A DNA stretch of 64,000 nucleotides from a virus: the IMG/VR virus record IMGVR_UViG_3300030103_003222, positions 18,762-82,761 of that record; one strand, written 5' to 3'. How positions within the stretch are numbered: the first letter of the stretch is position 1; each line of letters opens with the position of its first letter. Both the position numbers and the translations under genes were made by a program. Below the pieces are notes generated by a model. It was not told the DNA's origin, did no database searches, and was given only the letters and a program-made list of their open reading frames with translations. Positions 3-19,503 of the stretch are shown here, piece after piece.

Positions 3-599
3 AATGATGCGGGCATCGTGAAAAAGTCCTACACGGACAAGAAGTTCTCCATGCTACTCTCACTCTATGGTGAGGAATACGACATCATCAAAGGCGCTCA
101 ACGTGGGACATACGTTCGCATCACCACCGATGGACTGGTGATGAAGGATTCGTGGGCCTACGGCGCTGGCTTTCTCGATGCTGACGGCTACATCACCATC
201 ACCGAAAGAGGCGAACCTCGTGCGGGCTTGATTGCTACAGGCGACCGTGGTAGGACACACTGCGAAGACCTCTATAAAACGCTGGACTGCGGGGTGCTTC
301 AGTTGGACAGCAAGGTGTATCACAAAGCCTCGCAGCGAAGTCAACACCGTCTTCAGTTCTATTCCAAAGCCGACCTACGGAAGTTCCTTACCGGGGTCCT
401 ACCTCACCTGCGTATGAAGTCGACGCAGGCAAAGGCCGTCCTCGCCTTCATTGACGAGAAGGACGTCACTCGAAAGCAGGAACTCAAACGCCTTGTGCGC
501 TATGAAAACTGGAAAGACCACACGAAGAAGTCTGCTGAACTTCTGAGTGGTTGGGGTATTGACGCTGACACTGTCGGCACTTACGCGGAGGGTCTGTGA
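3..599 (+). CDS. LAGLIDADG homing-endonuclease-domain protein (frame open to the window edge, probably 5'-truncated)
   Basis: WAYGAGFLDADGYITI is a LAGLIDADG motif, followed by typical beta-strands and 'LRKFLTGVLPHLRMKSTQAKAVL'. The frame has no stop back to position 3. The stop overlaps the portal start (GTGATG). Confidence 0.8.
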   Translation, partial: NDAGIVKKSYTDKKFSMLLSLYGEEYDIIKGAQRGTYVRITTDGLVMKDSWAYGAGFLDADGYITITERGEPRAGLIATGDRGRTHCEDLYKTLDCGVLQLDSKVYHKASQRSQHRLQFYSKADLRKFLTGVLPHLRMKSTQAKAVLAFIDEKDVTRKQELKRLVRYENWKDHTKKSAELLSGWGIDADTVGTYAEGL

Positions 600-2341
600 T
601 GGCTGAAGAAGAACGAGGACCAGTCAGCCGATTTTTGTCGGCCATCGCCAGCCCATTTCGACGTCGCACGACGCCGCAGCCGCAAATGCCCCTCTACACC
701 ACGGGCATTCAGGAACCTGTGCTCGCACAGGGTATCACCATCCCATCGCTGTATGCGGTCAGTCACGAAAACCTGATTCTACGCACGGTTCAATCCAAAC
801 TCCAGCAAGAGGTCTTCAGGCGTGGCTACTACTGGGAGAAGCGTTTTGAGTCCAAGTGCATCGAATGTGAAGAGGAGTTCAATCACTCAGTCGACGTCTG
901 CAAGTCCTGCGGTGGTGAGGTTCGCAAGCCTGACCCTGAGCAAGTCATTTACGCCAAATGGCTGCTAAATCAAGAGAACTCGATGGAGCAGTCCTTCATG
1001 CAAGTCTTGCGTGAAGTTGAAAACGACCTCAACATCGTGGATGACGCCTTTCTCATTCTTATCAAGGAGTATTACGTTGACCCTGAATCGGGCGATATTG
1101 CCTTTTTCCGCGTCAAGGAAATCATTCGAGGCGACCCTATCTTCATGCGCATCATCGCAGACAAGCGTGGTGTCCGTGGTGGGCGGTATAAGGTGTGCCG
1201 CATCCATCGCGACCAAGTCGCATACCCCGGTCAAGAATCGAAATGTCAGACCTGTGGCTCACGCATGGTTGACGCACACTACGTCAACATGGCTGGGAGC
1301 GGTAAGAACCAGTATTTCACCAAGGGCGAAGTCATCCACATCAGCAAGTATAACCCGTCCAAACTCTACGGGCGCAGTCCTGTCAACACCATGTGGCGAC
1401 AGGCGATGAGCCTCACGGCCATGGACAACTACATCTACACCGCGTATCAGAAGCGACGCACGCCAAAAGGCATCATTTCCGTCACCACTGATAATCTTGA
1501 GTCGATGAAGTCGTTTTGGAAATCTGTCGATGAGAAGATGGAGCGTGACCCGCACTACGTGCCGAAGGTCGGTATCGAAAGTCAGACTGGGCGCGGTGGT
1601 GTGAACTGGGTCAAGTTCATGGACACGTTGGAAGAGATGCAATACATCGCTGTGCGCGACGAGATTCGCAACCGTATCGCGGCGTATTACGGTGTCTCGT
1701 CCATCTTCATGATTGACAACGGTAAGTCTGGTGGCCTCAACAACGAGGGGTTGCAGATTCTTGTCACCAACCGCGCAGTCGAGTTTGGTCAGAAGGTCTA
1801 CACCGACGTTCTGTTCCCCCGTATGTTGCGTGAGATGGATGTCTCAGATTGGAAACTCACTCTCTATCCCAATGAGGAAGAAGACGAAATCACTCGCCTG
1901 CGACGCGACGAGATGGAGGTCAACCTCGCTCAGCGTATGGCTATGCTCGGCTATAAGCCGGAATTGCTTGAAGAAGGCGACCGCGACATTCGCTTTGTCT
2001 ACAAGCAACAGGAAGAGCAACAGGGTGGGCAACAGGGTGGGCAACCCGGTATGCCTCCGGGTATGCCTCCCGGTATGCCTCCGGGTATGCCACCGGGTGG
2101 TGCAATGCCTCCGGGTGGTGCAATGCCTCCGGGTGGCGCGATGCCGCCCATACCTCCCTCTCAACCGGGCGGTGAAGGTGCGGGCATTCGCACACCGCGT
2201 TCACCGGCTCGGCCGCAGGCTCGCGGTAGTCCGGGTGCAGGCTCACCTGTAACCAGCGTTCAGCAGCGAGGTCCAGCACCCACGCAGGGGATGCAGAACT
2301 CAAGAGCGATTGGCGATGCGCGACGACTTCGCGGGGCTTAA
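599..2341 (+). CDS. Portal protein with Zn-ribbon-like insertions and a Pro/Gly/Met-rich C-terminal tail
   Basis: Portal-like motifs 'EVIHISKYNPSKLYGRSPV', 'RNRIAAYYGVSSIF' and 'GGLNNEGLQ'. Position at the start of the head module. CxxC pairs (CIEC/CKSC; CRIH/CQTC). Confidence 0.85.
   Translation: MAEEERGPVSRFLSAIASPFRRRTTPQPQMPLYTTGIQEPVLAQGITIPSLYAVSHENLILRTVQSKLQQEVFRRGYYWEKRFESKCIECEEEFNHSVDVCKSCGGEVRKPDPEQVIYAKWLLNQENSMEQSFMQVLREVENDLNIVDDAFLILIKEYYVDPESGDIAFFRVKEIIRGDPIFMRIIADKRGVRGGRYKVCRIHRDQVAYPGQESKCQTCGSRMVDAHYVNMAGSGKNQYFTKGEVIHISKYNPSKLYGRSPVNTMWRQAMSLTAMDNYIYTAYQKRRTPKGIISVTTDNLESMKSFWKSVDEKMERDPHYVPKVGIESQTGRGGVNWVKFMDTLEEMQYIAVRDEIRNRIAAYYGVSSIFMIDNGKSGGLNNEGLQILVTNRAVEFGQKVYTDVLFPRMLREMDVSDWKLTLYPNEEEDEITRLRRDEMEVNLAQRMAMLGYKPELLEEGDRDIRFVYKQQEEQQGGQQGGQPGMPPGMPPGMPPGMPPGGAMPPGGAMPPGGAMPPIPPSQPGGEGAGIRTPRSPARPQARGSPGAGSPVTSVQQRGPAPTQGMQNSRAIGDARRLRGA
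2018..2148 (+). repeat. Coding tandem repeats in the portal tail (QQGG x2, PGMP x4, PGGAMP x3)
   Basis: 12-bp units caacagggtggg and ccgggtatgcct, and an 18-bp unit ccgggtggtgcaatgcct, read directly in the sequence. Confidence 0.95.
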
Positions 2342-2383
2342 TGCTTTAAGCAGGAGCGTTCTACGGGGAACAGAGGGACTTCG

Positions 2384-2734
2384 ATGGACCTACTCAAAAT
2401 GCACCCGATGGCTCGAAAAATGGCTGTTCACAGCGAAGCCTTTGCGAAGGCGCTGGAAAGCGGTAACGCACAAGATGCGCAAGACCACATCAACGAGGTG
2501 TTGAAGTTCGCCGGCTTCCTTTCAGACGACATTCACGGCGCCATTGTCAAGGCTGAAACCGACAAGCACAACGAAATCGCCGGCAACATGATTCAGAAGA
2601 TGAACGTGACCGGGCAGAAGTTCGATGTTGCTCAGCGCGCTGATGTTCTTCCCGGCACCATCATCGCCGCTCGCACGCACAACCGTGCTCGCGTTCACCG
2701 TGGCACCTTTGGCCGTTTCGTCCCCGACTCGTGA
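2384..2734 (+). CDS. Hypothetical head-region protein (116 aa)
   Basis: ORF in operon order after the portal, with codon style like its neighbours. Contains DLLKM and AIVKA motifs. Confidence 0.75.
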   Translation: MDLLKMHPMARKMAVHSEAFAKALESGNAQDAQDHINEVLKFAGFLSDDIHGAIVKAETDKHNEIAGNMIQKMNVTGQKFDVAQRADVLPGTIIAARTHNRARVHRGTFGRFVPDS

Positions 2735-2743
2735 GGTGAGCAG

Positions 2744-3079
2744 ATGACGGAGGAAGTGTCCACGACAGAGCGCTTGATGAACGCGCTCATTTCCAAAATG
2801 GAAGCCATGGACAGCGATGTGCAGGCGTTGAAGGCTGAAAATGCCAATCTCCGAAAGGCACTTCGCGACCCTTCAGCCATGCTCCGCAAGGCAGGATTCG
2901 TCTCCGCAACCACCCCATTGAGCGAAGACGTCCCCCAAGACCCCTTCCGTGCCGATAGTGGTGCGCTGCTCAAGGGTGAGCAGGGAGGCTTCCCCTCAAA
3001 CGCTGAGATTCATCAGATGTCTTGGGACGATATTCACGAAATGGCCGAGCAGGCTCGTTCCGTGGAGGTGGTGCCTTGA
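2744..3079 (+). CDS. Small coiled-coil protein, possible mini-scaffold (C-terminal MSWDDIHEMA)
   Basis: GAGGTGA RBS. Coiled-coil N-half. C-terminal motif shared with the protease/scaffold C-terminus (MSWDEVHSLA). Confidence 0.8.
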   Translation: MTEEVSTTERLMNALISKMEAMDSDVQALKAENANLRKALRDPSAMLRKAGFVSATTPLSEDVPQDPFRADSGALLKGEQGGFPSNAEIHQMSWDDIHEMAEQARSVEVVP

Positions 3080-3885
3080 AGCCGATTCCCAGCCCAGCAT
3101 CCCGCGAAGCCATGGACCTGCTCAACAAGGCGATGCGCCTGCTTCAAAAAGCCGAAGAACTCGACATGGTCGAGCACGAGGGCGAAGAGGTCCCCGCTTT
3201 TGCTGCTGACGGCAAAGGCCCCAAGGACAAGAAGAAGGGCAAAAAGTGCCCTGAGTGTCAGGGTGAGGGCGACGACTGCGAATGTGACGATGAAGACGAA
3301 GGGCCTCAAGACGAGGGCGACGACGACATCAAACTGGAAAAAGGCAAGTGCAAGTGCAAGAAGGGCGAATCTTGTCGCGATTGCGAAAAGTGCCCTGAAT
3401 GTGGCGGGGCCATGAACAAGGGCAATTGCATGAAGATGAACTGCGGTGGGCCAACTAAGATGGCTAAGGCCAAGTGCGACTGCAAGAAGGGCGAATCTTG
3501 TCGCGATTGCGAAAAGTGCCCTGAATGCGGTGCTAAGATGGTAAAGGGCGCTTGCATGAAGATGAACTGCGGTGCAAAAATGCAGAAGGCCCAACCCGGT
3601 TTCTCGACCACGTTTGGTTTTGAGCCTCAGAACATCATGTTCGCATCCGAGTCCGGTGGGCAGACGCGCAACGCGTATTATTCCACCAACCAGTATGTCA
3701 TCAACTCGCAAGATGTTACCAACAAGGGCGGTCAATCGTCTTCTATCAACTTCGACGGACTTTCTGCTCAATTGAATCCACATGATGGTGGCGGCGTTGA
3801 CCGACAAGTGCAGGGTGAGACACTCACCAAGCAACAGATTGTCAAAATCCGCGATATTGTCAGGAAGTCAGGGCTTCAGGGGTGA
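3076..3885 (+). CDS. Cys/Lys-rich head-region protein with a duplicated Cys-rich module
   Basis: Start reassigned to TTG 3076 (GGAGGTG at 3064-3070, overlapping the upstream TGA). Two copies of KCxCKKGESCRDCEKCPECGxxMxKGxCMKMNCG. Confidence 0.75.
   Translation: MKPIPSPASREAMDLLNKAMRLLQKAEELDMVEHEGEEVPAFAADGKGPKDKKKGKKCPECQGEGDDCECDDEDEGPQDEGDDDIKLEKGKCKCKKGESCRDCEKCPECGGAMNKGNCMKMNCGGPTKMAKAKCDCKKGESCRDCEKCPECGAKMVKGACMKMNCGAKMQKAQPGFSTTFGFEPQNIMFASESGGQTRNAYYSTNQYVINSQDVTNKGGQSSSINFDGLSAQLNPHDGGGVDRQVQGETLTKQQIVKIRDIVRKSGLQG
3355..3527 (+). repeat. Direct repeat, 126-bp period, identical 47-bp core
   Basis: tgcaagaagggcgaatcttgtcgcgattgcgaaaagtgccctgaatg occurs at 3355-3401 and 3481-3527. 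Confidence 0.95.
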
Positions 3886-3891
3886 GCCTGT

Positions 3892-6800
3892 GTGGAGGAA
3901 GACCCAGCGGAGGTCTACATTCGCGCCCGTAATGACCTGCTGAAAAGCGCGGTTGATTTTCACGATTACGAAGACAACATCGCGAACTACGCGTTTGCGA
4001 AACTCAGTCTTGAGCACCACGGTATCGAGTTCGAGCCGCTGTGGGAAGACCGTCTTTGTGAGTCCATCCTCAAATCTGCTTTCAGGACTAAACTCGATGC
4101 AGAACCAGCCCTCTCTGAGAACGCTCTGCTCGACTTGCAGGTCAACAACCCTGAACTTGCTCGGGAATACGCGGAGGCGTTGGGCGAACTCAAAGATGCG
4201 CGTAACGCAATGAGTGGTAGCGTTAGTGTCGATGAGATGTTGAGTTTCGGCAAACTTTCTGACCGCGTCGCTGCGCTTGAAGCACAGGTAACTGGACGCA
4301 GCACTGAGCAGCAGAAAGAGGAAGGAGCGCTCGGTGGAAACATCAGCGATGAGGCTGCTCGAATCCCCCAGCATACCTTCTCTGACCGCATCGTGGAACA
4401 CTCTCTACGCGACATTCATCGAATGTGGCCTCAAGTCAAACCTATCGGTCGCTATGACGAGTCTTTCCTGAGTGACGGTCACGGTTTGCTCTCCTATGAC
4501 CCGACAGACCCGACAGGTCGTCCCATGTGGGCGCGTTTGCTTCGTGGTTTCTATCTACCTCAACCCTATCAGAAGGGCGACAAGAACTTGCGAATGTCGC
4601 TGGCCGAACGATACGCCTCCGCTGAGTTGGCGCACCTCAAGGCCAACAAGGGCAAGCGAGCCTTTGAGCCTCGAAAGCGTAGCGGTGCTGAAGATGAAGA
4701 GCATATCCCTCACTTTGGGCCACTGATGTCCACCTCGCACGCCGTCTATGAGCAAGCGTATCAGGCGTGGCGTCAAAGTCGCGGCGGAAAACTGTCTGAA
4801 CTGATGGTCTTTGCAGATACCGAAAACCCAGTCGAGCGAGACTATCGCATGCGTGAAGAGCACTTCAAGGCGGTTGAAGACCACGCTTGGTTCAGCACTG
4901 GTATCGGGGGTAACGTCGACCCCAAAAGCACCATGAGTCAAGAGGAAATCGCGGAGCGTGGTATCAACGACCCCGAGTCATTGGAGGAATATGACATTGA
5001 CCATGGCTTTGGGATTTGGCCGTATCTTCTTGGTTTGGACTTTTTGCCACCTGCCGACATGCACCGTGTCTTGAAACACATTGACGAACACGGCACCGAT
5101 AAAGCAGACCAGCAAATTGTGAAACTCAGCGGCCCGGTTCCTTTTATCGACATGGGGCGTGTGAAGCGTGACTTCGCTCAGCGTTTCACCCCTCTTTTCC
5201 ACGCTGCGGCGCGGAACGCACATCACCCCGGAGCCACCATGCGCAAGCGCAACGAAGGGTCGAGGTTGACCGACGCTCGTGGTTTTGAAGGCCTCGAAAG
5301 GGACAACCTCTTCTACGCTCTCAGTCACACTCCTCACCCAAGCAATCCTGACAGGACGTTGCGCGATTTCGTCAACGAGCGCTTTTCACGTTATATGAAC
5401 CCCGGAGATACAGAGGACGATGTCGTTGACGAGAACTATCCCATTCCCAACATCACTGCTGCACTCGCCAAGAATATGGAGGGTAACACACCCGAGGAGA
5501 ATCGGGAATTACTCGGTAGACTGAAACCCGCATACGCACATTCTGAACACAGCGTGAACTGGTTCCTCGGGAGAGACAAGGACGGTGCGCTCATCAATGA
5601 CCACCCCCTCTATCCTGATGCTACCGATGCAAACCACCCTGCTGGGCAGGAAGATTTGATTGAGCGTCTGCACGATGCCTCTGACGAACTCACTGATGCT
5701 GTGATGTCTTCCAAGTTTTCACGTGACATTGACGCCTTCTATCATCTCGGGAACAACGTCCCATCGCTTGACGACATCCCCGAGTCTGAGCGAGAATCGT
5801 GGCTACGCGCCGATGACGGCTCTTTGCTCGGTCTTGCACATTACTGGGGCAAGCCGTTCCACTACGAGGGTGGTTATGGGAAGCATCCCAAGATGCTGAT
5901 TGAAATGCTACATCAGATGTGGCCCGGTGAGCGTTCTCCTTTCGGTCAACTCGAAGGCGGTCGCATTACGCCGAACGAGGATGCACTCGGCCTCACCAGC
6001 CGCTACATCTCAATGGGTTTTGCACCTGAAACACAACACGCGGGCAGTCCACGTGTTCAGTTGTCATTCTTCAACGCCTCTCAACCAAGGAGTGAAACGG
6101 CAAAGCGTCGCTCTCGCACTCGAAATCAGGCAGCATTCCACGGCAAAGTCAGCACTTCACCGGCATATTCCAATTCGGTTGCTGGCAAAAGCGACGACGA
6201 GATTCGTCAAGTCACTGGCGGTAAGGTGCAGAAATTTTCTCTTGATAATACCGGATGGACCACGGGCGACTCCTATGGCGCGATTGGCTCCAAGCAACGC
6301 TTCACGATGCGGGAAAGGGCATCTCGTTGGTGGCACTGGTTGGCTACGCGAATGCGCACTGGCTCAGGTGAAATCCCCGACAAGTTTCATTCGCAGCAAG
6401 AGATGGAAGCCGGTAACGTTGAGCGCACTCGTGGCACAAAGCGTGAGTTTGACCGCTTGCAGGGGTGGGCTGATAAGGACAAGACTTCATCGAAGAAGTT
6501 TGCTGAAATGCTGGATGAGGCGGGTCATGACGAAGCCGTTGACGAAATCACCCTCAATCACTTGTCCGACACACAATTGGCTTTGGAAGAAGCACTTCAG
6601 GAAGAGTTCTCTTCCTCGTTCAAAGATGAAATCGGCAACGCTTCTTCTGAAGAAGTGCAAGCGCTCATTGCAGGTGTTGAAGACCCCAACAAGCGCGCTG
6701 ACATGATGCGTCGCTTCCGTGAAATCTACGACTCCAGCGGAATCGTTGACGCCCATCGCGAGTTCGATGAGATGATGGAGTCCTACGAGCGGGTCGGTGA

Positions 6801-9693
6801 AAGCGAGTTTGACCCATCGAAAGATGACTTCAGCAGACGCGCGCATGTGAACAAGAAGTTCGACATGGACATGGCTGCTGTGACTTCTCGCGCTCGTCAG
6901 ATGTTTCAGTCTGCGCTCAAGACGCATCCTGAACACTTCAACCCAAACAACCCACAGTTCATCCCTAACGTCGTTCAGTTGTTCCATGCTGCTGAGAAGG
7001 ACCTTCTCATGAACGGAGGTGAACAACATGGACTCAAGACGTGGGGCTACGCAGTCGGGGAAAAGCCGGGTGCCTCGCTTGAAGAAGAGATTGGTGGCGA
7101 CCTTTCTTCTTCACCTGCGAAGGTGTTGGCTCACGGACTGAATCTCGTCAACGAAGATATGCGCATTAACATGAACTCCTCGAACGCTCGCATTCTCGAC
7201 GTGCTTCGGATTCCCGAGGACCAGCGCGACCAAGCCCATATCGAAATGGCTGAGCGCATCAAAGAGCAGTTAGAAGGCCACACTGAGAACGCCGTCATCA
7301 TGACTGTCGGTGAGGCACTTCGACAGGGCATTTCACCAAAGGTGCAGACAAGTCGAGGCGTTCAAACCATTCCTGCCCCTTACGACATGGAGACTCCTGA
7401 CGCTGAAGGTCCTGTTGACCACTGGGCAGCCAGCAAGGCACACTACCGTGGCCTCATCCCATTGAAGAAAGAAGTCGGGGAGACGGCGTATAAGCGAGCG
7501 CGGCGTCAGGCAGACGCTTGGGCGAAAGGCGCCGCTCGCAACATCCCTCGATATTTCACTGAGCATCGACAACTTGGTTTGTTTGGTGATGACCGCAAAC
7601 AGGAAGCGGAGCAGCATGGCCTCATGATGGTGCCACTCGAACGCCAGTTTCAAGGCACGGACAGAACGGGAATTGCGCTCGCGCAGCATGAGATTGAGAA
7701 CGCCATGCACGCCGTGCTGATGTTCTCACCCGGACATCCCGGCTTCGACCCCGCCGTGATGCAGGGAGCCAAGAAGGCCACCATGGGCAACGTGAAACAC
7801 GCTGAGTGGCAAGAAGTCCCAGTCGGTCCTGTGCACCCTGATTCACAAGGCGTCATCAACACTCATTACACGGGCGGTCTGATGGACCGAGGTGTTGTCA
7901 TCGCTCCCCCGTCCATCGGTTTCTCTGTAGGGAAGGGACGAGAGCCGACCGTTGGCACCAACATCGTGGGCGATGTCCGCCGCGTTCTTCCCAGTAAGGA
8001 GCAGATGGCGATGGTCACTGGAGCCGAGATGACCGAGACGGCTCTCAACAATGGCTTCCCATATGTGCAGCAACAAGCCCAGCACTTCTCTGTCGACCCG
8101 TTCACAGGCACCGCGCCCGTAGACGGCGGCTATGACCTCATTCACACCAGCGACCCTGTCGAGACACTGATGGTGCTTCTTGACCCTCAAGCCCTGCTGA
8201 AGAGTGATGAAAGCCGGCCACCGCCTGTGTTGGCGATGCACCGCATTTTTGCTCTACGCGACCTCGACTCGTTGCGTGGCTTCAGCGATGACTGGGCTGT
8301 TTCGGGCCTTCCCCGTGGTGAGCGCCTTATCGTCAAGCGCGAAAGTGACGATGTCACAGCGTATGACGAAGGTGGGGAGGATGTAAAACTCAAGCCTGCT
8401 GACGTCAAGCAGTTCAAGGCCTTGGCCGACAGCGACTACGTGATTGACGTTGTGCGGGCAAAGAAGGAGTTCGTCGTCTATGACCTGCTGTCCTATGACG
8501 ACAACAATGTGTCGGACATGCTGTTGCGTGAGCGCATCAAACTCTTGCGCGCTCAATTCGACAGCCACGAGCACGTCATTGTCCCCGGCCCGCACAATTT
8601 CCGCATGACCGACCGTGAAGGGCTTGAAGCCGTGGTCGAGGCCTTGTCACCTGACCACGATTACCTGATGCTACGCGATGCGACTTCGACTTACATGAAG
8701 GGAGAGCGACGCCATCCGAAGTGGTTTATGCTCCGCAAAGACAAGGTCTTGTCCTTCATGGTGCTCGACGCTCGTGGGAAAGGACCGTTCGTCTATCGCC
8801 TCGGTGCTGGACCTGTCGACGCTGAGGACAGCGGGAACCGTGTGGTCGAACACGAAGGTAAGCACTACGTTGACGTCGGCACGGTGCGCAGCCCCAAGCC
8901 ATTCAATGAAGGCGACGTCATCCAAGTCCGCGTGTCTGGTGTTCGCGTTAAGCGCGACAACAAGACCTACGACGTCACCGTGTCCAATGTGAAAGGCACG
9001 AGTGAGGACGAGTCCCCCGCTTCGCTGGAAACACTCAGTCTTCTGACCAAGTCCCATCCCATTATCGCCGTGCCCTTCGACGTCACCATGGGTAGCGAAC
9101 GGCTAACGCTGGACATCTCCGAAGTGGACAGCATCACGTATCGCTTGGAGAAATCACAACACGGTGTGTGGGCCATTGAGGGGCGTGCAGCGCTCGGTGC
9201 TGTGCAAAAGAGCGACTACGCCATGCGCCTCGCAGAAAGTCTGCGACCTCTGTGGATGGAAGCAGCGGCTCTCATCTCAAAGGGAACAGAGAAAGTCCGT
9301 AGCATGACCGAACCCAAGAATCAACGGCAATCGGCCAAAGAGTCTGCGGGTATCATCGAGGAAGACGATGAAGAGGCCATCCTCAAGCCAAAGAAGGTCG
9401 AGGTGATGGCTAAGACGCTGATGCGAATTGCCGACTTGATGGACCGCATCGAGAAAGAGCGCATGACTGGCGGTCCCGGTGCCCGTGGCTTCTCGTTTGA
9501 CGCAGGGAGTCAGGTTGAGTCGCCTCGTGGACCCACTCGTTTGACCTCCGAAGAGTCGCTACCTGACTGGGACATGAAGGAGCGCCCCACTGAGGACCCC
9601 GAGGAAGAATACCCTGAAGCGCGTCGTAAGCGTCTGAAAGACAAAAATGAGCGGCAGTCTACCGATTTGGAAGAAAACGTCGACTCATATTGA
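3892..9693 (+). CDS. 1933-aa head-region protein: large unknown N-terminal region plus a degenerate ATP-dependent DNA ligase-like domain (approx. 8203-9051)
   Basis: Ligase-like segments 'WAVSGLPRGERLIV', 'FVVYDLLSYDDNNVSDMLLRERIKLL' and 'YLMLRDATSTYMKGERRHPKWFMLRK', then an OB-like beta region. GGGGTGA RBS with a GTG start. Confidence 0.75.
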   Translation: MEEDPAEVYIRARNDLLKSAVDFHDYEDNIANYAFAKLSLEHHGIEFEPLWEDRLCESILKSAFRTKLDAEPALSENALLDLQVNNPELAREYAEALGELKDARNAMSGSVSVDEMLSFGKLSDRVAALEAQVTGRSTEQQKEEGALGGNISDEAARIPQHTFSDRIVEHSLRDIHRMWPQVKPIGRYDESFLSDGHGLLSYDPTDPTGRPMWARLLRGFYLPQPYQKGDKNLRMSLAERYASAELAHLKANKGKRAFEPRKRSGAEDEEHIPHFGPLMSTSHAVYEQAYQAWRQSRGGKLSELMVFADTENPVERDYRMREEHFKAVEDHAWFSTGIGGNVDPKSTMSQEEIAERGINDPESLEEYDIDHGFGIWPYLLGLDFLPPADMHRVLKHIDEHGTDKADQQIVKLSGPVPFIDMGRVKRDFAQRFTPLFHAAARNAHHPGATMRKRNEGSRLTDARGFEGLERDNLFYALSHTPHPSNPDRTLRDFVNERFSRYMNPGDTEDDVVDENYPIPNITAALAKNMEGNTPEENRELLGRLKPAYAHSEHSVNWFLGRDKDGALINDHPLYPDATDANHPAGQEDLIERLHDASDELTDAVMSSKFSRDIDAFYHLGNNVPSLDDIPESERESWLRADDGSLLGLAHYWGKPFHYEGGYGKHPKMLIEMLHQMWPGERSPFGQLEGGRITPNEDALGLTSRYISMGFAPETQHAGSPRVQLSFFNASQPRSETAKRRSRTRNQAAFHGKVSTSPAYSNSVAGKSDDEIRQVTGGKVQKFSLDNTGWTTGDSYGAIGSKQRFTMRERASRWWHWLATRMRTGSGEIPDKFHSQQEMEAGNVERTRGTKREFDRLQGWADKDKTSSKKFAEMLDEAGHDEAVDEITLNHLSDTQLALEEALQEEFSSSFKDEIGNASSEEVQALIAGVEDPNKRADMMRRFREIYDSSGIVDAHREFDEMMESYERVGESEFDPSKDDFSRRAHVNKKFDMDMAAVTSRARQMFQSALKTHPEHFNPNNPQFIPNVVQLFHAAEKDLLMNGGEQHGLKTWGYAVGEKPGASLEEEIGGDLSSSPAKVLAHGLNLVNEDMRINMNSSNARILDVLRIPEDQRDQAHIEMAERIKEQLEGHTENAVIMTVGEALRQGISPKVQTSRGVQTIPAPYDMETPDAEGPVDHWAASKAHYRGLIPLKKEVGETAYKRARRQADAWAKGAARNIPRYFTEHRQLGLFGDDRKQEAEQHGLMMVPLERQFQGTDRTGIALAQHEIENAMHAVLMFSPGHPGFDPAVMQGAKKATMGNVKHAEWQEVPVGPVHPDSQGVINTHYTGGLMDRGVVIAPPSIGFSVGKGREPTVGTNIVGDVRRVLPSKEQMAMVTGAEMTETALNNGFPYVQQQAQHFSVDPFTGTAPVDGGYDLIHTSDPVETLMVLLDPQALLKSDESRPPPVLAMHRIFALRDLDSLRGFSDDWAVSGLPRGERLIVKRESDDVTAYDEGGEDVKLKPADVKQFKALADSDYVIDVVRAKKEFVVYDLLSYDDNNVSDMLLRERIKLLRAQFDSHEHVIVPGPHNFRMTDREGLEAVVEALSPDHDYLMLRDATSTYMKGERRHPKWFMLRKDKVLSFMVLDARGKGPFVYRLGAGPVDAEDSGNRVVEHEGKHYVDVGTVRSPKPFNEGDVIQVRVSGVRVKRDNKTYDVTVSNVKGTSEDESPASLETLSLLTKSHPIIAVPFDVTMGSERLTLDISEVDSITYRLEKSQHGVWAIEGRAALGAVQKSDYAMRLAESLRPLWMEAAALISKGTEKVRSMTEPKNQRQSAKESAGIIEEDDEEAILKPKKVEVMAKTLMRIADLMDRIEKERMTGGPGARGFSFDAGSQVESPRGPTRLTSEESLPDWDMKERPTEDPEEEYPEARRKRLKDKNERQSTDLEENVDSY

Positions 9694-9700
9694 TGCCGCC

Positions 9701-9712
9701 TTATTTATGTAG
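9701..9712 (+). promoter_or_regulatory. Candidate archaeal TATA-like late promoter upstream of the protease-capsid operon
   Basis: TTATTTATGTAG, a rare AT-rich patch in a GC-rich genome, about 26-37 nt upstream of the GTG at 9738. Confidence 0.5.
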
Positions 9713-9737
9713 GTGAACACACCAACGGGGGATTAGT

Positions 9738-11114
9738 GTGCTACTCCGAAGCAGCAATCAGTCCGGCCTCACTCTCCTCAAGGGGAGCAGTGACCTCGTC
9801 GTTGCTGGCTATGCTTCAGTAGAACTCGTAGACAAACAGGGGGACTTGATTACACGGTCGGCGCTTAAGGACGCGTTCAAGAAGTTCATGTCCGACCCCA
9901 AGTATTCAAACGTCCAATTAGCACACTCAAACATTCAAGTCGGAGAAGTAATACCGTCATACACAGACAACGAAGGGAGGTTTTGGAAGAGCGAGGTTGA
10001 TGATGCGGGAATGTTCGTCGTCGTCAAACTGAGAAATGACATCGAGAAAGCCCGAGAAGTGGCCGCCGAGATTCGTAAAGGAAACCTTGCAGGATTCAGC
10101 ATCGGGGGACAAGCGTTCAAGCGAGTTCACAAAGCAGACGCGAATCACGGCTCATATCAGGAAATCTCCAAACTCGAACTTCACGAAATCACAATCTGCG
10201 AAAAAGGAATCAACCCCGAAGCCACATTCAAAATCCTAAAGGAAGACACTGAAAACAACAAGGTGAGTAAAATGACTGACGATGTAATGAACCAAATGAA
10301 CAGCGTGTTGGAGCGACTGGAAGGTCGCCTCGATGACATGGAAAAGGGCATGCCTCCTCAACTGAAGGAGCACATGGAAGACAAGAAGTCCAAGAAGGAC
10401 GACAAGGAAAAGGCCGCATATAAGGCTGAAGCCGAAGAGGACGAGAAGGAGAAGAAGGACGAGAAGAAGAAGTCCGAGTTCTCCGACGTCATCACGGCCG
10501 AATACCTCGACTGGATGGAGAACACCCTCAAGTCCGCTGGTGTGGACACTGATGGTGCTCGCGCCCACTTCGACGGCATCACCAAGGCCAACCTCGGCTC
10601 CACCCCCGAGTCCATCGGTGACGGCGCTTCCTACTTTGCTGGGCAGGTCAACGGCCGTGCTCAGGAAGGCGGCTCCCCGTCCACCAACGCTCTTGCTCGC
10701 GCCGGCCTCTCTCGTGGCGGCGGCGGCGAAGTCAGCAAGGGTGACTTCCTCACCTCCATTGACCCCGTCAGCGCCGAAGAGGCCTACGAGGTCTTCAAGG
10801 CCGCTAAGCAGGAAGAAGAACTCCGCAAGGCCCTTGAAGGAAACTTTGAGCAGCGCTACACTCATGAGCGCACGGTCGAAGTTCAGAAGGCTCAGGCCCA
10901 AGCGTTTGACCCTCGCGGTCCCCTCGATGAAGTCATGAAGGCGCTCGGCGCCCTCAATGAGCGCATCGACAACCTGTCTACCGGCGGCGGCACCACGCTC
11001 GCCAAGTCGGCTGACGCTGCCCCGACGGTCGCTGTCCCTGAGACGGCTGACCTCGCCAGCATGTCATGGGATGAGGTCCACTCGCTCGCGAACCGAGCGA
11101 TTCGTGGAGAGTGA
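9738..11114 (+). CDS. Prohead (HK97-like) maturation protease fused to a C-terminal scaffold
   Basis: 'VVAGYASVELVDKQGDLI', 'AHSNIQVG' (His), 'GFSIGG' (Ser) and 'LHEITICEKGINPEA'. Charged coiled-coil C-half. Lies directly upstream of the MCP. Confidence 0.9.
   Translation: MLLRSSNQSGLTLLKGSSDLVVAGYASVELVDKQGDLITRSALKDAFKKFMSDPKYSNVQLAHSNIQVGEVIPSYTDNEGRFWKSEVDDAGMFVVVKLRNDIEKAREVAAEIRKGNLAGFSIGGQAFKRVHKADANHGSYQEISKLELHEITICEKGINPEATFKILKEDTENNKVSKMTDDVMNQMNSVLERLEGRLDDMEKGMPPQLKEHMEDKKSKKDDKEKAAYKAEAEEDEKEKKDEKKKSEFSDVITAEYLDWMENTLKSAGVDTDGARAHFDGITKANLGSTPESIGDGASYFAGQVNGRAQEGGSPSTNALARAGLSRGGGGEVSKGDFLTSIDPVSAEEAYEVFKAAKQEEELRKALEGNFEQRYTHERTVEVQKAQAQAFDPRGPLDEVMKALGALNERIDNLSTGGGTTLAKSADAAPTVAVPETADLASMSWDEVHSLANRAIRGE
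10272..11114 (+). CDS. Putative in-frame, internally initiated scaffold protein
   Basis: aaaacaacaAGGTGAgtaaaATG: an AC-rich leader, SD and in-frame ATG immediately after the protease domain. Confidence 0.6.
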   Translation: MTDDVMNQMNSVLERLEGRLDDMEKGMPPQLKEHMEDKKSKKDDKEKAAYKAEAEEDEKEKKDEKKKSEFSDVITAEYLDWMENTLKSAGVDTDGARAHFDGITKANLGSTPESIGDGASYFAGQVNGRAQEGGSPSTNALARAGLSRGGGGEVSKGDFLTSIDPVSAEEAYEVFKAAKQEEELRKALEGNFEQRYTHERTVEVQKAQAQAFDPRGPLDEVMKALGALNERIDNLSTGGGTTLAKSADAAPTVAVPETADLASMSWDEVHSLANRAIRGE

Positions 11115-11150
11115 GCAATCACCAAACACACAAAATGAGGAGTGAATAAT

Positions 11151-12329
11151 ATGGCACGAAACTACGTCCGAACTGTTACCGACATGGAGCGCTATTACTA
11201 CGGCGCCGGAAACGCGATGGGATATTCCTACAGCGGCTCTGAATTGCTCAAGGCTGACGCACCGATGCTGTCCACCACTGGTGGCACCTATCAGGCCATC
11301 TACGGCCGCAAAGTGTGGTCCCAATTGAACCAAGAGTTCAACGCCTTCTCCATCCTTCCCAAGAAGCCTTGGGAGCGAAGTGGATGGCGCGTCATCACCG
11401 CCAAGCCTAACGGCGGCTCTCTGAGCGGCGGAATCGCTGAGAACGGCACCCTGCCGGAAACCATCAAGCCTACCTTCCAGCACGTTGCTGCGAAGCCCAA
11501 GACCATCGCTCACACCTTCGACCTGAGCGAAGTCGCCATCTTCTTGTCCGACAAGGACGACGGCCTCGGTGACATGCGCGCCGTGATGAAGGAAGAGATG
11601 GGTAAGCACCACGCTGAGATGGTGAACCTGATGCTCACCACCGACGTCAGCACCGTTGCGGGCAACAACTTCGAGTCCCTCGACCGCATTACCGCTGCCG
11701 ACGGTGGCTCCAGCCCCTCCAACAACGCTGGTCTGAAGACGGCTGGCGGCAACCAACACGTTGACGCCGCCTCCGACCTCGACATCTACAGCATCGCCCG
11801 CGCCTCAAACTCGTGGTCCCACGCTGAGATGAACTGCGCCAACGACACCACGGCGGGCAACAAGCGTGTGCTCTCCCTCGACTTGCTCGACACGATGTTC
11901 CAGCAGATGTGGGAGCGCGGTGGCAACCCCAAGGTCATCCTGACGGGCTACGACACCCTGATGCGCCTCCAGCAACTCTTGCAGGCGCAGCAGCGCTTCA
12001 TGGAAGAGAAGCGTGTGACGCCCACCTACAACGGTGTGAAGGGTGTTCCCGGTATCGAAGCCGGTTTCATCGTCGCTACCTACAACGGTGTGCCCATCAT
12101 CCCCTCGAAGGACGTCAACGACGACGATGGCCTCGCCCGCATGTATTTCCTCGACACTGACTACCTCTACTTCAGCACGGCCATCCCCACGCAATACTTC
12201 GAGTCCGGCATCGAGACTGGCGACCCATTCGCCATCAACCGTCTTGGTCAGGAAGGCCTCTACCGCACGATGGGCGAGGTTTGGACGACTTTCTTTGGAG
12301 CGCAGGGCCAAATCCGCGACCTTAAGTGA
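11151..12329 (+). CDS. Major capsid protein (HK97 fold)
   Basis: Follows the protease. Strong C-ending codon bias. 'IAENGTLPETIKPTF', 'FESLDRI' and 'YNGVPIIPSKD...MYFLDTDYL'. GAGGAGTGA RBS before ATG 11151. Confidence 0.9.
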   Translation: MARNYVRTVTDMERYYYGAGNAMGYSYSGSELLKADAPMLSTTGGTYQAIYGRKVWSQLNQEFNAFSILPKKPWERSGWRVITAKPNGGSLSGGIAENGTLPETIKPTFQHVAAKPKTIAHTFDLSEVAIFLSDKDDGLGDMRAVMKEEMGKHHAEMVNLMLTTDVSTVAGNNFESLDRITAADGGSSPSNNAGLKTAGGNQHVDAASDLDIYSIARASNSWSHAEMNCANDTTAGNKRVLSLDLLDTMFQQMWERGGNPKVILTGYDTLMRLQQLLQAQQRFMEEKRVTPTYNGVKGVPGIEAGFIVATYNGVPIIPSKDVNDDDGLARMYFLDTDYLYFSTAIPTQYFESGIETGDPFAINRLGQEGLYRTMGEVWTTFFGAQGQIRDLK

Positions 12330-13701: not shown

Positions 13702-14007
13702 GTGATGGGTATGGGCTTTGAACTGGCGAGCATCGACTTCGATGACATCAGCCGGATGCAAAAGCAAGCCGTCCGCTCCGACGTGGCTCTTGCACCTGAG
13801 ATGGTGAACCCTGAAGACCCTCTCAAGGGCGTAGTCAAAGAACAGCGCAACCGCAACAGCGAGATTGGCGATGTTCTCAACATCGGCTCAGGGACGCGCT
13901 GCAAGCACTGCGGCATGCTGCACTTCATGTGGCGTGAGAACTGCGGCTCTTGCGGCAAGCCCATGGAGTATAACCTCGGCCACCGTGATGAGGGGGCAAG
14001 AGAGTAA
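13702..14007 (+). CDS. Zn-ribbon protein (start may be 13705 or 13711)
   Basis: CKHCG...CGSCG motif. The stop overlaps the next start (TAATG). Confidence 0.75.
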   Translation: MMGMGFELASIDFDDISRMQKQAVRSDVALAPEMVNPEDPLKGVVKEQRNRNSEIGDVLNIGSGTRCKHCGMLHFMWRENCGSCGKPMEYNLGHRDEGARE

Positions 14008-15599
14008 TGCCTGTCGTCTTCAACCCCGGTGAGCCTGAGACTCGCCCTCTTGACCCCACCGCGATGGTCTACACGACGCCGCAGAAGGTGGCTGACTACC
14101 TCGGTATTGGGCCACAGGAGCCTGTGCTCGCATCTGCTGACTCTGTGAGCGACGGCGTGTTCATCACTGGCGAAGACTACCGCCGCTGCGGCACCGAGGT
14201 TGGCGACACCATCCTCATCTACAGCGACGCCAACCCTCTTGGCGTTGAGAAAGAGATTACCGGCATCAGCAACGGTGGCACCAGTGGTGTGAAACTGGAG
14301 TTCACCGGCTCTTTCACTCACGCTGATTTTGAGGCGGCAGACAACGCCTACGTGCAGAATCTCGCATCGTTCACCAACGCCAAGGTGGGTCGACAACGCG
14401 GTGTCACCAAGGCGATTGTGCAGGCACGTATTCGTGAGGTGCAAGACAAAATCGACAACATCACGCACACAGCGTGGCGTCCCTACATTGTCGCTGCAGA
14501 GTTCATCAATTTTGACACGTATAAGCCATACAGGCGTCGATATTACACCGATTATGTCGGCACTACACCGCTTCTGTTCCGCAGCGTGCAACAGGTTCTG
14601 CGATTGGAACTGTGGCAGGGTGACGACTACCGTGAGATTTGTGGTGCTGAAGCCCGACTGCAGATTCCTGAAGACGTGCGAGCCATCAGTGGCTCTATTG
14701 TTCTGTCACCCGGAAACGGGACCTCCGTGACGTTGACTGCGGAGAAGGACTCTGCTGCCACGGCCACCACCACCAAGTGGCGCACGGACTTTGACGCCAC
14801 GACCACTGCGCAGAACCTCGCGGACCTCATCAACAAGGAAGACCGCGTCAGCAAGGCGTCTGTTGAGTTCAGCCCTGCCTTCACCCTCGAAGGCTCTACG
14901 TCAAACGTGGCCGTCCACAACGAGTTCCTCGCCTCAGCCAATGCCGAATACGGCACGGGAATCGTCAAACTCTCCAGCATGCGTCAAGCGAAGGGCGGTG
15001 AAGTTTGCAGCCTCGTCTGCACTGACAGCACCATCGGCATCTCACAGACTGCGCAGCAGACCACCGCCTTCAGTGCTGTTGTGGACACCGATGACGTGCA
15101 GGTCACTTCGACTGGGGGCTTTGCCAAGGCGGGTGTTGCGACAGATGGCACCAACGTCTTTCGCTACACCGCAGTGTCCGATACCAAGTTTCTGAACTGC
15201 ACAGCGGTCATCGGCTCGCTCGGCTCACTGAGCGGCAACATCAGTCAACACTTGCTGCAACTCGACTTGCAGGGTGGGAGCGCCAGTGGCGACAACGCCC
15301 GTTTCAAGGACTGGTGGCTCGACCACGACATGGGTATCATTTACTTCAACAACTCATACCCCTTCTTCGAGTGGAACGCCGTCAAGGTGTCCTACATCTA
15401 CGGTGAGCGCTATTTGGAGAAGGCCATTGAGGAGGTCGCCACGAAGATGGTGGTCATTGACCTGCTCATGTCTGATGACCGCAGCGTGCTGCTGCCTGAA
15501 GGGACCAACAACATCGACCTCTCAGCCAAGGTGCAGTTGCTGCAGTCTGAGATTGACCGCATTCTCCCACGGTATCAGGAAATCGTCCTGTTCGAGTGA
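14007..15599 (+). CDS. Head-tail adaptor/connector-like protein with inserted beta domains
   Basis: N-terminal 'YTTPQKVADYL' and C-terminal 'AVKVSYIYG...AIEEVATKMVVIDLL' are typical of gp6/gp15-type adaptors. Located between head and tail genes. Confidence 0.65.
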   Translation: MPVVFNPGEPETRPLDPTAMVYTTPQKVADYLGIGPQEPVLASADSVSDGVFITGEDYRRCGTEVGDTILIYSDANPLGVEKEITGISNGGTSGVKLEFTGSFTHADFEAADNAYVQNLASFTNAKVGRQRGVTKAIVQARIREVQDKIDNITHTAWRPYIVAAEFINFDTYKPYRRRYYTDYVGTTPLLFRSVQQVLRLELWQGDDYREICGAEARLQIPEDVRAISGSIVLSPGNGTSVTLTAEKDSAATATTTKWRTDFDATTTAQNLADLINKEDRVSKASVEFSPAFTLEGSTSNVAVHNEFLASANAEYGTGIVKLSSMRQAKGGEVCSLVCTDSTIGISQTAQQTTAFSAVVDTDDVQVTSTGGFAKAGVATDGTNVFRYTAVSDTKFLNCTAVIGSLGSLSGNISQHLLQLDLQGGSASGDNARFKDWWLDHDMGIIYFNNSYPFFEWNAVKVSYIYGERYLEKAIEEVATKMVVIDLLMSDDRSVLLPEGTNNIDLSAKVQLLQSEIDRILPRYQEIVLFE

Positions 15600-18366: not shown

Positions 18367-18375
18367 GGTGACAAC

Positions 18376-18906
18376 ATGACCGACCGATTGACTGCTTTCC
18401 ATTACCGCCGCAAGACCCCTGTTGATTACGCGCACTGGTTTGCGGAGCACATCGGGGTGGAGGGTATCGTCCTCGACAGGGTGCCTCGTGAGAAGGAGCG
18501 CATCGAAGACCTTGTGTTGACCCTGACCGCCCCGCACGAGTCGGAGATTCAGCCGACCACTGAGTCGAATGACCCGGAGAACATCCCCGACACCGAGGTT
18601 GAAGACATCCCCAACAGCGAGGACTTTCCCGCTGAACTTTCCTACGATGCCATGACGCTTGTTGAACTCCGCGAAGAGTGCAAGCGCCGTGGTCTTCCCT
18701 ACTACGGCACCAAGGCTGAGATTGCTCTCCGCCTAAAGCGTGACGATGAAGGGATTGAAGAGTCCACACCGACGCCGGAGGCCCCCGATGAAGAATCGGC
18801 TGCCGAGGAAGAAGTGGACGCCCCCGCTGATGAAGCGGCTGCGACCGAGGTGGAGATGAATGAAGACAGTGAGCGACAAGACCAAACTGCTGAGACAGAA
18901 GAATGA
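18376..18906 (+). CDS. Acidic protein with a SAP domain
   Basis: 'YDAMTLVELREECKRRGLPYYGTKAEIALRL' fits the SAP consensus. GAGGTGA RBS. Confidence 0.8.
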   Translation: MTDRLTAFHYRRKTPVDYAHWFAEHIGVEGIVLDRVPREKERIEDLVLTLTAPHESEIQPTTESNDPENIPDTEVEDIPNSEDFPAELSYDAMTLVELREECKRRGLPYYGTKAEIALRLKRDDEGIEESTPTPEAPDEESAAEEEVDAPADEAAATEVEMNEDSERQDQTAETEE

Positions 18907-19231
18907 GAAGATGCACGAGATTCCTGTAGACCCCGATGACCCAAATGTGGTCATGCGGGTGTGGGTCAGGGACATCTCATTCTTTGACATGCAGCAGGCC
19001 GCTCAAGCCATGCTCGATTTCGAGTCTGACGGTTCATTCAACATCAACCTCGCCGCCTACTGGCGCCACGCTTTCACGCACTGGATTGTCCGCTCTGAAC
19101 CGGAGATGACCAGCAGCGAACTGCTTGACCTCAGAGGCGACATCGGCCAGCGCATTTCGTCGCTGCTACCTTCGCCCAACGCGCTTGCGGAGGCGATTCA
19201 GGGAGATTTTACGCAAGGCGACAGTCAGTGA
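18860..19231 (+). CDS. Putative tail assembly chaperone (G-like)
   Basis: About 120 aa, between the tube and tape measure genes. Confidence 0.55.
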   Translation: MKTVSDKTKLLRQKNEKMHEIPVDPDDPNVVMRVWVRDISFFDMQQAAQAMLDFESDGSFNINLAAYWRHAFTHWIVRSEPEMTSSELLDLRGDIGQRISSLLPSPNALAEAIQGDFTQGDSQ

Positions 19232-19503
19232 TTGAGGCCTTCCTCAGTCGAAAGACGGTCGCCACTGCAGAAGACATGCAGATGCAATTGGAATTGTGGG
19301 CCTACATCATCGCCAAACACTACGGTATATCGTTGAAGGAAGTGCATGAGATGAGTCCTGAGACGTTCCAGCAGTCGTTGACTTGGGCCTTCGTTGGAAG
19401 GAGTCAAGAGGAAAAGGACATGAAGAGGCAGCGCCAAGAAGCAAACAGCGGGGGCCGTGAGACGGTCAGCCTCGACTATGATTGGCTCAGTGAGGACTTC
19501 TGA
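19228..19503 (+). CDS. Putative tail assembly chaperone (T-like, -1 frame relative to the upstream gene)
   Basis: 'IAKHYGISLKEVHEMSPETF' is typical of the second chaperone ORF. Overlaps the upstream ORF in the -1 frame. Confidence 0.55.
   Translation: MIEAFLSRKTVATAEDMQMQLELWAYIIAKHYGISLKEVHEMSPETFQQSLTWAFVGRSQEEKDMKRQRQEANSGGRETVSLDYDWLSEDF

Follow-up and report, generated by a model that had tools for sequence, protein, structure and literature searches.

Of the viruses that infect archaea in the ocean, magroviruses are among the most abundant, and their Marine Group II hosts are uncultured. We analyzed a window of 64,000 nucleotides (bases 18762-82761 of the 82.7-kb IMG/VR virus record IMGVR_UViG_3300030103_003222; CheckV completeness, 77%), which on sequence grounds belongs to a magrovirus, one of the tailed viruses that infect Marine Group II archaea. 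Its head genes run from a portal gene to the gene for the major capsid protein (MCP), and directly before the latter lies a gene (9738-11114) in which a Peptidase_S78 domain is fused to a scaffold (Table 1). A short motif, [LIVM]-x-K-[AGS], recurs in the products of this region. The initial annotation of the window had read the motif as the cleavage site of the prohead protease, and the proteins encoded between portal and protease as cargo packaged in the procapsid. In the following, an arrow marks the candidate cut after the Lys, and the surrounding residues are called P3, P2, P1 and P1'.

At about 30% identity, the head genes had matches in three siphoviruses of haloarchaea (HVTV-1, HCTV-1 and HCTV-5), and close relatives of the protease-scaffold were encoded on 231 IMG/VR contigs. 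In the available passages of Philosof et al. 2017 (PMC5434244), a ligase gene and a LAGLIDADG gene within the structural module are given as magrovirus traits, and the ligase gene is called unexpected there. The window has both traits, the former as a ligase-like gene.

Table 1. Features of the head region (positions in the window; open reading frame, ORF; amino acids, aa)
Feature	Position	Strand	Remarks
444-aa ORF, 3' part, weak LAGLIDADG-like domain	3-599	+	start 736 bases before the window (record 18026-19357)
Portal protein	596-2341	+	PF04860 43.5 bits; phrog_18178 E 6.7e-64
ORF2384, 116 aa	2384-2734	+	no Pfam or PHROG match
ORF2744, 111 aa	2744-3079	+	coiled-coil N-terminus; C-terminal MSWDDIH
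ORF3076, 269 aa	3076-3885	+	TTG start
1933-aa protein	3892-9693	+	ligase-fold domain, PF01068
Candidate leader of 1933-aa protein, residues 1-18, ending LLK↓S	3892-3945	+	
Ligase-fold domain of 1933-aa protein	8203-9051	+	between ALLK1437↓S and LLTK1720↓S
Prohead serine protease domain, residues 1-175	9738-10262	+	PF04586 38.7 bits, cut-off 21
Scaffold part of protease-scaffold fusion, residues 176-458	10263-11114	+	8 motif sites
MCP, HK97 fold family	11142-12329	+	PF17236 40.3 bits
Candidate MCP propeptide, residues 1-37, ending ELLK37↓AD	11142-11252	+	

A lysine motif in the protease-scaffold and capsid protein

All 27 motif sites listed in the initial annotation were present in the proteins to which they had been assigned. 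With expected counts taken from per-protein shuffles, the head proteins carried 36 sites against 11.9 expected (z 7.3), whereas the other 39 proteins of the window carried 38 against 32.6 (z 1.0), as the annotation had anticipated for head proteins relative to the rest. The claim that the motif marks most head-region proteins stood for the protease-scaffold (12 sites vs 2.20 expected), ORF3076 (8 vs 1.16, scored from the internal Met at 3112) and ORF2744 (3 vs 0.31). It did not stand for the MCP (1 vs 0.98), whose mature part has no excess, or for the portal (1 vs 1.25; 21 sites vs 38.8 expected over 29 homologues); ORF2384 had 1 site vs 0.46 expected.

Because the motif had been picked after the data were viewed, every residue was scanned at each position as a control. 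At P1 of the head proteins, Lys was the sole outstanding residue (34 vs 11.3, z 6.8); the runner-up was Pro with z 2.5, and Glu was depleted (10 vs 15.3). Ala, Ser and Gly were the three best residues at P1'. Leu and Val led at P3, where Ile and Met were also in excess and Cys (3 sites) ranked between them. In the same scan of the rest of the window, no residue stood out.

Homologues were collected as ORFs from 80 related IMG/VR loci and their distinct sequences were aligned; these relatives are akin to one another, so that the homologue counts given here and below are not independent and overstate independence. The motif was kept in at least 90% of the distinct homologues at 14 of the 27 listed sites, and in at least 75% at 16, which bears out the expected conservation for that part of the list. 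At many kept sites the Lys was invariant while P3, P2 and P1' drifted within their class, as at scaffold K283 (VAKA, ISKA, IAKA, LAKA) and K334 (VEKS, VSKS, VNKS, VSKG). At the 12 motif lysines of the protease-scaffold, conservation averaged 0.98, compared with 0.74 at the 30 remaining lysines. We conclude that the motif is real, specific and conserved.

The protease domain also matched PF14550 (27.4 bits, cut-off 24), five PHROG 'head maturation protease' families, and HK97 gp4 (BLASTP, E 7e-5), in which MSVGF lies opposite FSIGG. AHSN (His63) and FSIGG (Ser121) were invariant in 58/58 protease sequences, and we take the HK97 residues aligned with them to be catalytic. The candidate N-terminal cut TLLK15↓GS kept the motif in 57/57 sequences, as did each of the scaffold sites K203, K283, K354 and K401; the motif was kept in 56/57 at K334, K384 and K423 and in 25/57 at K364. 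Together, the 58 protease-scaffold sequences contained 444 motif sites vs 74.5 expected. The last scaffold site, TLAK423↓S, is followed by a C-terminal MSWDEVH peptide (11007-11111).

In the MCP, the distribution was reversed. The K37 motif was kept in 52/52 sequences (LLKA in 45, LLKS in 7) and residues 1-40 held exactly one site in each of 53 sequences, whereas residues 41-395 held none in 51 sequences vs 43.7 expected; the body of the capsid protein thus avoids the motif. ELLK37↓AD aligned with GMSK102↓AD of the HVTV-1 MCP, the two proteins being 32% identical overall. Among solved relatives of the MCP and the protease-scaffold, the best was a weak match to the Mic1 MCP (E 0.065), so no solved structure marks the N-terminus of the mature MCP.

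The S78 enzyme of HK97 cuts after Lys. As a positive control, we examined HK97 gp5, where the delta domain accounted for four of the five [LIVMF]xK[AGS] sites, namely IQK9↓A, LTK52↓S, LIK87↓S and FNK103↓S. Of these, FNK103↓S104 is the known maturation cut. In the MCPs of HVTV-1 and HCTV-1, all 4 sites lay within the first 103 residues, the last one aligning with K37 of the window, and the protease-scaffolds of these viruses held 5-6 sites vs ~1.5 expected. Direct listing of relatives gave only matches of at least 70% identity; for a wider scan, cluster representatives were used instead, namely 124 of the 150 best of the protease family (at least 250 aa; clusters at 50% identity). These contained 821 K-motif sites vs 278 expected (z 34), and Lys was the top P1 residue in 85/124. 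With the catalytic domain masked (115 proteins), Lys was found 410 times vs 171 (z 19) and Arg 164 times vs 96.5 (z 7), with no other residue outstanding. The Lys-type site thus appears as a trait of a wide S78 clade, beyond this virus, and the scan suggests that Lys, and more weakly Arg, at P1 with a hydrophobic P3 and a small P1' is general for a large part of it.

The fusion to the S78 domain, the avoidance in the MCP, the alignment with K102 of HVTV-1, the HK97 delta domain and the clade scan support well, by comparison, the proposal that the motif marks cuts of an HK97-family prohead protease. A different explanation would be that the motif is not cut at all and instead reflects helical or coiled-coil structure, or serves as a peptide on which another partner docks, such as a chaperone (the magrovirus thermosome) or a lysine-modifying enzyme. 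Many sites do lie in predicted helices, e.g. ELRKAL and EVMKAL, and magroviruses encode chaperonins according to the available passages of PMC5434244. A generic helical bias, however, would favor Glu and Arg like Lys, whereas Glu was depleted and the Glu-rich protease-scaffold had zero [LIVM]xE[AGS] sites. The lack of the motif in the mature MCP and its fit to the HK97 site context also speak for cleavage, and we regard a non-cleavage role as improbable.

The sites might also be cut by a host protease or another trypsin-like protease rather than by the viral S78 enzyme; staphylococcal phage 80alpha, for example, uses a host protease for processing. The link between the S78 protease and the motif rests on comparison, which leaves room for such an enzyme. 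Yet the motif tracks the S78 clade over 124 diverse representatives, it is concentrated in the very polypeptide that is fused to the S78 protease, and its context matches that of the HK97 enzyme. Processing by a foreign protease is, in our view, very improbable.

The genes between portal and protease

ORF2744 has two conserved sites, MLRK49↓AG (31/31 homologues) and ALLK77↓G (29/31). Its C-terminus and that of the scaffold share a module consisting of a motif site (ALLK77↓G and TLAK423↓S, respectively), ~12-20 residues, and an anchor-like peptide with the consensus (D/E)(I/L)xxMSW(D/E)(D/E)(I/V)Hx(M/L)A, which is conserved in both families. In a six-frame translation of the whole 82.7-kb record, this peptide occurred only twice, in ORF2744 and in the scaffold. 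The last 21 aa of ORF2744 matched the scaffold C-terminus with 43% identity (BLASTP, E 2e-5), a weaker colinear segment paired MLRK↓AGF with EVSK↓GDF, and the two family profiles matched in hhalign (E 3.1e-5, probability 73%). Both scaffold species thus have in common a conserved C-terminal peptide behind a protease-type site. This module of a cut site plus MSWEEVH is a new finding, absent from the initial annotation. By sequence comparison ORF2744 looks like a small scaffold paralogue rather than cargo, and by analogy we read the shared peptide as a putative shell anchor that is severed by the protease.

ORF2384 carries a single site, AIVK56↓AE, at which the motif was kept in 31/31 homologues while P3, P2 and P1' varied (IVKA, IVKS, VVKA, IKKS). 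ORF3076 is a real gene; its first codon overlaps the ORF2744 stop and is preceded by GGAGGTG, and its relatives begin with MKPIPSP. The protein has a conserved N-terminal helix, a variable Cys-rich region of CxxC repeats and a conserved C-terminal domain. Two sites in the helix, LLNK↓A and LLQK↓AE, were kept in 16/20 and 12/20 homologues. The repeat region is full of M-x-K followed by Gly or Ala at sites that align poorly (1/20 to 10/20), and the 20 homologues together held 108 motif sites vs 27.2 expected. The repeats (3300-3620, + strand) have the form CxxC...CPxCG...M-x-K-G-x-C-M-K-M-x-C-G; their number and order vary among relatives, and every unit ends in the Lys motif.

In the related loci, the gene for the 1933-aa protein without exception immediately preceded the protease gene. 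Its product comprises an N-terminal helix up to DLLK18↓S, a hypervariable stretch, a body of unknown fold, a ligase fold (~1440-1720) and a conserved C-terminal tail. The protein evolves fast: its 38 distinct full-length homologues had a mean column identity of 0.315, and it was 31-34% identical between genomes whose scaffolds were 70-77% and whose MCPs were ~82% identical. Despite this, residues 1-30 were preserved and the motif at DLLK18↓S was kept in 38/38 homologues. Conservation was 0.65 in residues 1-50 vs 0.10-0.14 in residues 51-150, and Y9, R11, R13, L16 and K18 were invariant in 35 aligned sequences. LLTK1720↓S was kept in 38/38 and LISK1797↓G in 31/38; at K1437 the Lys was kept in 38/38 and the full motif, with a small P1', in only 15/38. 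K61, K1348, K1754 and K1773 were not conserved, the motif being found in at most 6/38 relatives. Two AlphaFold2 models of regions of the protein were of low confidence (predicted local distance difference test, pLDDT, 58.6 and 63.9). In them K18 ends the N-terminal helix (predicted at 5-22), K1437 falls in a linker of low pLDDT, and helices that end at K1720 and K1797 adjoin low-confidence stretches. The statement that the motif often lies at domain boundaries could be checked only in part, at these four sites.

PF01068 matched with 27.1 bits (cut-off 26.2) over profile positions 103-200 only, and was found in 31/38 homologues. It was the only Pfam match for the whole protein and for 37-38 homologues of each half. 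Searches of the 1933-aa protein gave no match in PHROGs and no usable match in the ESM Atlas, and its 35-sequence profile found nothing below E 0.36 among PDB sequences. For residues ~1440-1720, as placed in a low-confidence model, Foldseek retrieved archaeal DNA ligases (E 5.8e-9), along with weaker matches to archaeal and human ligases; the modelled domain has the nucleotidyltransferase and oligonucleotide-binding (OB) folds of an ATP-dependent DNA ligase. The catalytic lysines of ligase motif I (KxDGxR) and motifs IV/V are absent. No invariant Lys occurs between residues 1438 and 1549 of the alignment, and in the alignment to PDB 4eq5 HDYLMLR stands opposite HEGLMAK and KWFMLR opposite KWLKIK. 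Because these canonical lysines are missing, the domain is probably not an active ligase; Philosof et al. 2017, in the available passages, list this type of structural-module gene as a DNA ligase (PMC5434244).

For residues 1-900 (model pLDDT 63.9), Foldseek gave no match at E <= 0.001. A dGTPase/CloA-like identity (best rows, E 0.12-1) was not accepted, and VIA-align returned only generic helical bundles (Z <= 7.6, residues 60-140). The fold of residues 150-710 is not called new, since the model is too long and uncertain.

Large proteins occupy a similar place in the haloviruses. Between portal and protease, HVTV-1 (genes 113-115) and HCTV-1 (genes 106-109) encode 1000-1300-aa proteins and a MuF-like gene; one of these large proteins is annotated with a zeta toxin domain, and in HVTV-1 gene 114 the motif occurs 3 times where 0.46 would be expected. 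By BLASTP, the 1933-aa protein had no match in the HVTV-1 and HCTV-1 head regions. In several distant relatives the S78 domain lies inside 1000-1300-aa proteins, at either end, so large partners are sometimes fused directly to the head protease.

The motif was also found beyond the core head genes. The 444-aa ORF, in which Pfam LAGLIDADG_3 fell below the cut-off (16.7 vs 22.5 bits) and whose N-terminal 250 residues were assigned to no family, had 8 sites over its whole length vs 2.12 expected (p 0.002). K92, K254 and K276 (DIIK↓GA) were kept in 7/7 homologues, and two of these three lysines immediately precede the nuclease domain. Upstream of the window, in the same record, six proteins carry peptides of the form (P)xDxA(W/F)xx(L/I/V)K↓(S/A); the peptide is N-terminal in one of the six and internal in the rest. 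A near-variant with Glu after it is present in a seventh protein, and a looser LLK↓A site in another. In related loci, tags of this AW-LLK type were matched only 6 times vs 0.4 expected, and the ORFs concerned were small and lay behind the capsid gene; within the window there were none outside the head proteins. These tags belong mainly to the region upstream of the window.

From these data, two readings of the genes between portal and protease can be weighed: that ORF2384, ORF3076 and the 1933-aa protein are substrates of the protease within the procapsid, or that only ordinary HK97-type maturation takes place and these proteins are neither substrates nor cargo. In the latter case, what conserved matches there are would have a structural cause or be due to chance, and the proteins would act outside the capsid or as portal-associated assembly factors like MuF or SPP1 gp7. 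It is consistent with this that the excess is carried by the scaffold, the scaffold-like ORF2744 and the repeat-rich ORF3076, that four of the eight sites of the 1933-aa protein are poorly kept and K1437 rarely has the full motif, and that K1720 lies within a generally conserved block. On the other hand, K18 sits in a conserved N-terminal island just before the hypervariable stretch, which is structurally hard to explain, and upstream proteins that are unrelated share the LLK↓S ending. Nor would a structural role readily account for the single site of ORF2384, which varies around its Lys and yet keeps the motif throughout. The K-motif sites of the 1933-aa protein outlasted matched control motifs (mean kept fraction 0.44 vs 0.02-0.24; kept in at least 75% of homologues, 3/8 vs 5/62, Fisher p 0.043). 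Maturation restricted to scaffold and capsid protein seems to us rather unlikely.

Several observations weigh against cleavage at the motif, or against its extension to these genes, and temper the substrate reading. Nine of the 27 listed sites keep the motif in less than 50% of relatives, half of the list is weak, and the kinship of the relatives and the low confidence of the structure models have to be borne in mind as well. The count in the 1933-aa protein (8 sites vs 4.61 expected, p 0.08) is not significant by itself, and the excess in conservation of its sites over the controls appears modest. Its leader ends like the upstream AW-x-LLK↓S tags, but the spacing differs. Conserved motif sites also occur where cutting is unlikely, within the folded protease domain (K104, K114, K132). 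In vir519, a Methanofastidiosa virus with a related MCP, neither the MCP nor the 799-aa protease-bearing protein has a site (0 vs 2.1 expected); archaeal relatives thus do not all share the motif. Downstream of the MCP gene, a protein of 530 aa (14007-15599, + strand) has 3 conserved motif sites, with 89 sites vs 33.5 expected over 32 homologues, and may be a further head protein or a case in which the motif occurs without cutting. A 202-aa protein of the replication arm (47197-47805, - strand) has 4 sites vs 0.69 expected (p 0.006), an excess that may be due to chance among the 47 proteins tested. Sites in these last two proteins mean that the motif is not proof of cutting, and cleavage, encapsidation and delivery are for magroviruses what we infer from sequence comparison.

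Two features of the structural genes lie apart from the motif. Near its C-terminus (~2040-2200, + strand), the portal protein has a low-complexity PPGM/PPGGAM repeat. In the tail region, 22112-38953 (+ strand) is one open frame of 5613 aa, whose sole Pfam match was a sub-threshold Laminin_G_3 near its start (23.7 vs 27.6 bits).

A proposed maturation pathway

We propose that the hydrophobic-x-Lys↓Ala/Ser/Gly motif is the recognition site of the virus's own S78 prohead protease, made as a fusion with the scaffold. In a first step, the MCP would assemble around the protease-scaffold and its small paralogue ORF2744, both scaffold species being held to the shell by the C-terminal MSW(D/E)E(V/I)H peptide. 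In a second step, the protease would become active and cut after Lys: it would remove residues 1-37 of the MCP, trim its own N-terminus at K15, sever the anchor peptides at TLAK423↓S and ALLK77↓G, and chop the scaffold into pieces of ~17-80 residues able to exit the shell. A role of the motif as site code of the S78 protease for scaffold breakdown, MCP trimming and anchor release, as in these two steps, is in our judgment likely.

In a third step, ORF2384, ORF3076 and the 1933-aa protein would most likely be inside the procapsid while the protease is active, because they have conserved sites of the same kind. We put their presence there, and their cleavage, at close to an even chance but not above it. 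In a fourth step, the 1933-aa protein would lose its 18-residue leader, and possible cuts at K1437, K1720 and K1797 would free the catalytically degenerate ligase-fold module. The whole chain up to this point we hold to be somewhat more probable than its failure. In a fifth step, the 1933-aa protein and the upstream AW-x-LLK↓S-tagged proteins may remain within the head and pass into the host together with the DNA; this last step, including delivery of the 1933-aa protein, we advance tentatively, as something that may well prove wrong.

The initial annotation had gone further, in taking all genes from portal to protease as packaged cargo. This is narrowed by ORF2744, which looks like a scaffold paralogue, and by the 1933-aa protein, only 3/8 of whose sites are conserved. 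On the boldest view, magroviruses would load their heads with a sequence-readable payload, and a Lys-specific HK97-type protease would set free the leaders and joints that bear the hydrophobic-x-K↓small mark. A ~220-kDa fast-evolving protein would undergo trimming and division into modules before its injection along with the DNA, a picture we consider possible though doubtful. The dead ligase fold in the injected protein might then bind DNA ends or nicks. That the upstream AW-LLK-tagged accessory proteins would be handled likewise is an equally tentative part of the same idea. It had also been suggested that the cuts be sought as non-tryptic N-termini in virion proteomics; a cut after Lys looks tryptic, so such N-termini would not reveal it.

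A sequence code for head-protease cuts would predict the mature capsid protein from metagenomes alone, and would predict which proteins are scaffolding only and which fast-evolving ones are likely to enter the host. With magrovirus hosts uncultured, such a code is useful where particles cannot yet be measured directly. A general Lys/Arg site preference of S78 proteases would aid phage annotation well beyond this virus. With our proposal, the ligase-like gene that the available part of PMC5434244 found 'unexpectedly' in the structural module also gains a possible explanation that can be tested. If true, the payload reading would give archaeal viruses their first described system of injected cargo; our literature search found no paper combining magrovirus with ejection or internal protein.

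Comparison with known head-processing systems

The closest parallel is HK97 gp4/gp5 (MEROPS S78, PF04586), in which 104 residues of gp5 are removed in maturation, as stated in the available part of PMC9024508. The two systems are alike in the protease family, in a protease gene adjoining the MCP gene, and in a Lys site with a small P1' and a hydrophobic P3 that occurs several times in the removed part. They differ in that here the scaffold is fused to the protease, not to the MCP, whose leader has only 37 residues. Here, too, a second small scaffold-like protein and large neighbors carry the motif, the host is archaeal, and the sites are known from sequence alone.

The protease-scaffold fusion and a separate scaffold species with one common C-terminal peptide recall the herpesvirus assemblin/scaffold pair UL26 and UL26.5, in which the shared C-terminal peptide binds the MCP and is severed by the protease. 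The herpesvirus protease has another fold and an Ala↓Ser site; in the magrovirus, the second species is a separate gene, ORF2744, instead of a nested one, and MCP binding would be assigned to its peptide by analogy.

The head protease of T4 belongs to another family and cuts after Glu in L/I-x-E. No such gp21-type protease or cut was found here, where the protease is S78, P1 is Lys and Glu is depleted; the system may therefore work like that of T4 but is not a member of it. The proposed logic is alike: in T4, gp21 acts with IPI-III and Alt, and one protease motif is placed on the scaffold, the MCP leader and the leaders of packed, injected proteins (available passages of PMC9024508 and PMC9026906), the capsid-targeting leader being cleaved (PMC9024508, same passages). 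Of a leader shared in the T4 manner, the window offers the conserved 18-residue leader on the 1933-aa protein, with the upstream AW-x-LLK↓S peptides partly internal and differently spaced.

The Dar system of bacteriophage P1 is a precedent for the proposed loading of the 1933-aa protein: there the head holds a very large enzyme-like protein, the protease is HK97-like, and an N-terminal signal suffices for loading (PMC9024508 and PMC12810830, in the parts available). The ~250-kDa DarB is loaded through its N-terminal 30 residues (PMC9024508), and the HK97-like protease Pro trims gp23 and DarA (PMC9024508, PMC12810830), according to those parts. Unlike the leader proposed for the 1933-aa protein, the DarB signal is not reported there to be cut off, and the dar genes do not lie between portal and protease. 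In the giant phages phiKZ and SPN3US, the protease is T4-like, it cuts after Glu, and the cuts are backed by mass spectrometry; as proposed for the magrovirus, the head proteins that undergo processing can be predicted from a sequence motif (available parts of PMC7411985 and PMC10052503).

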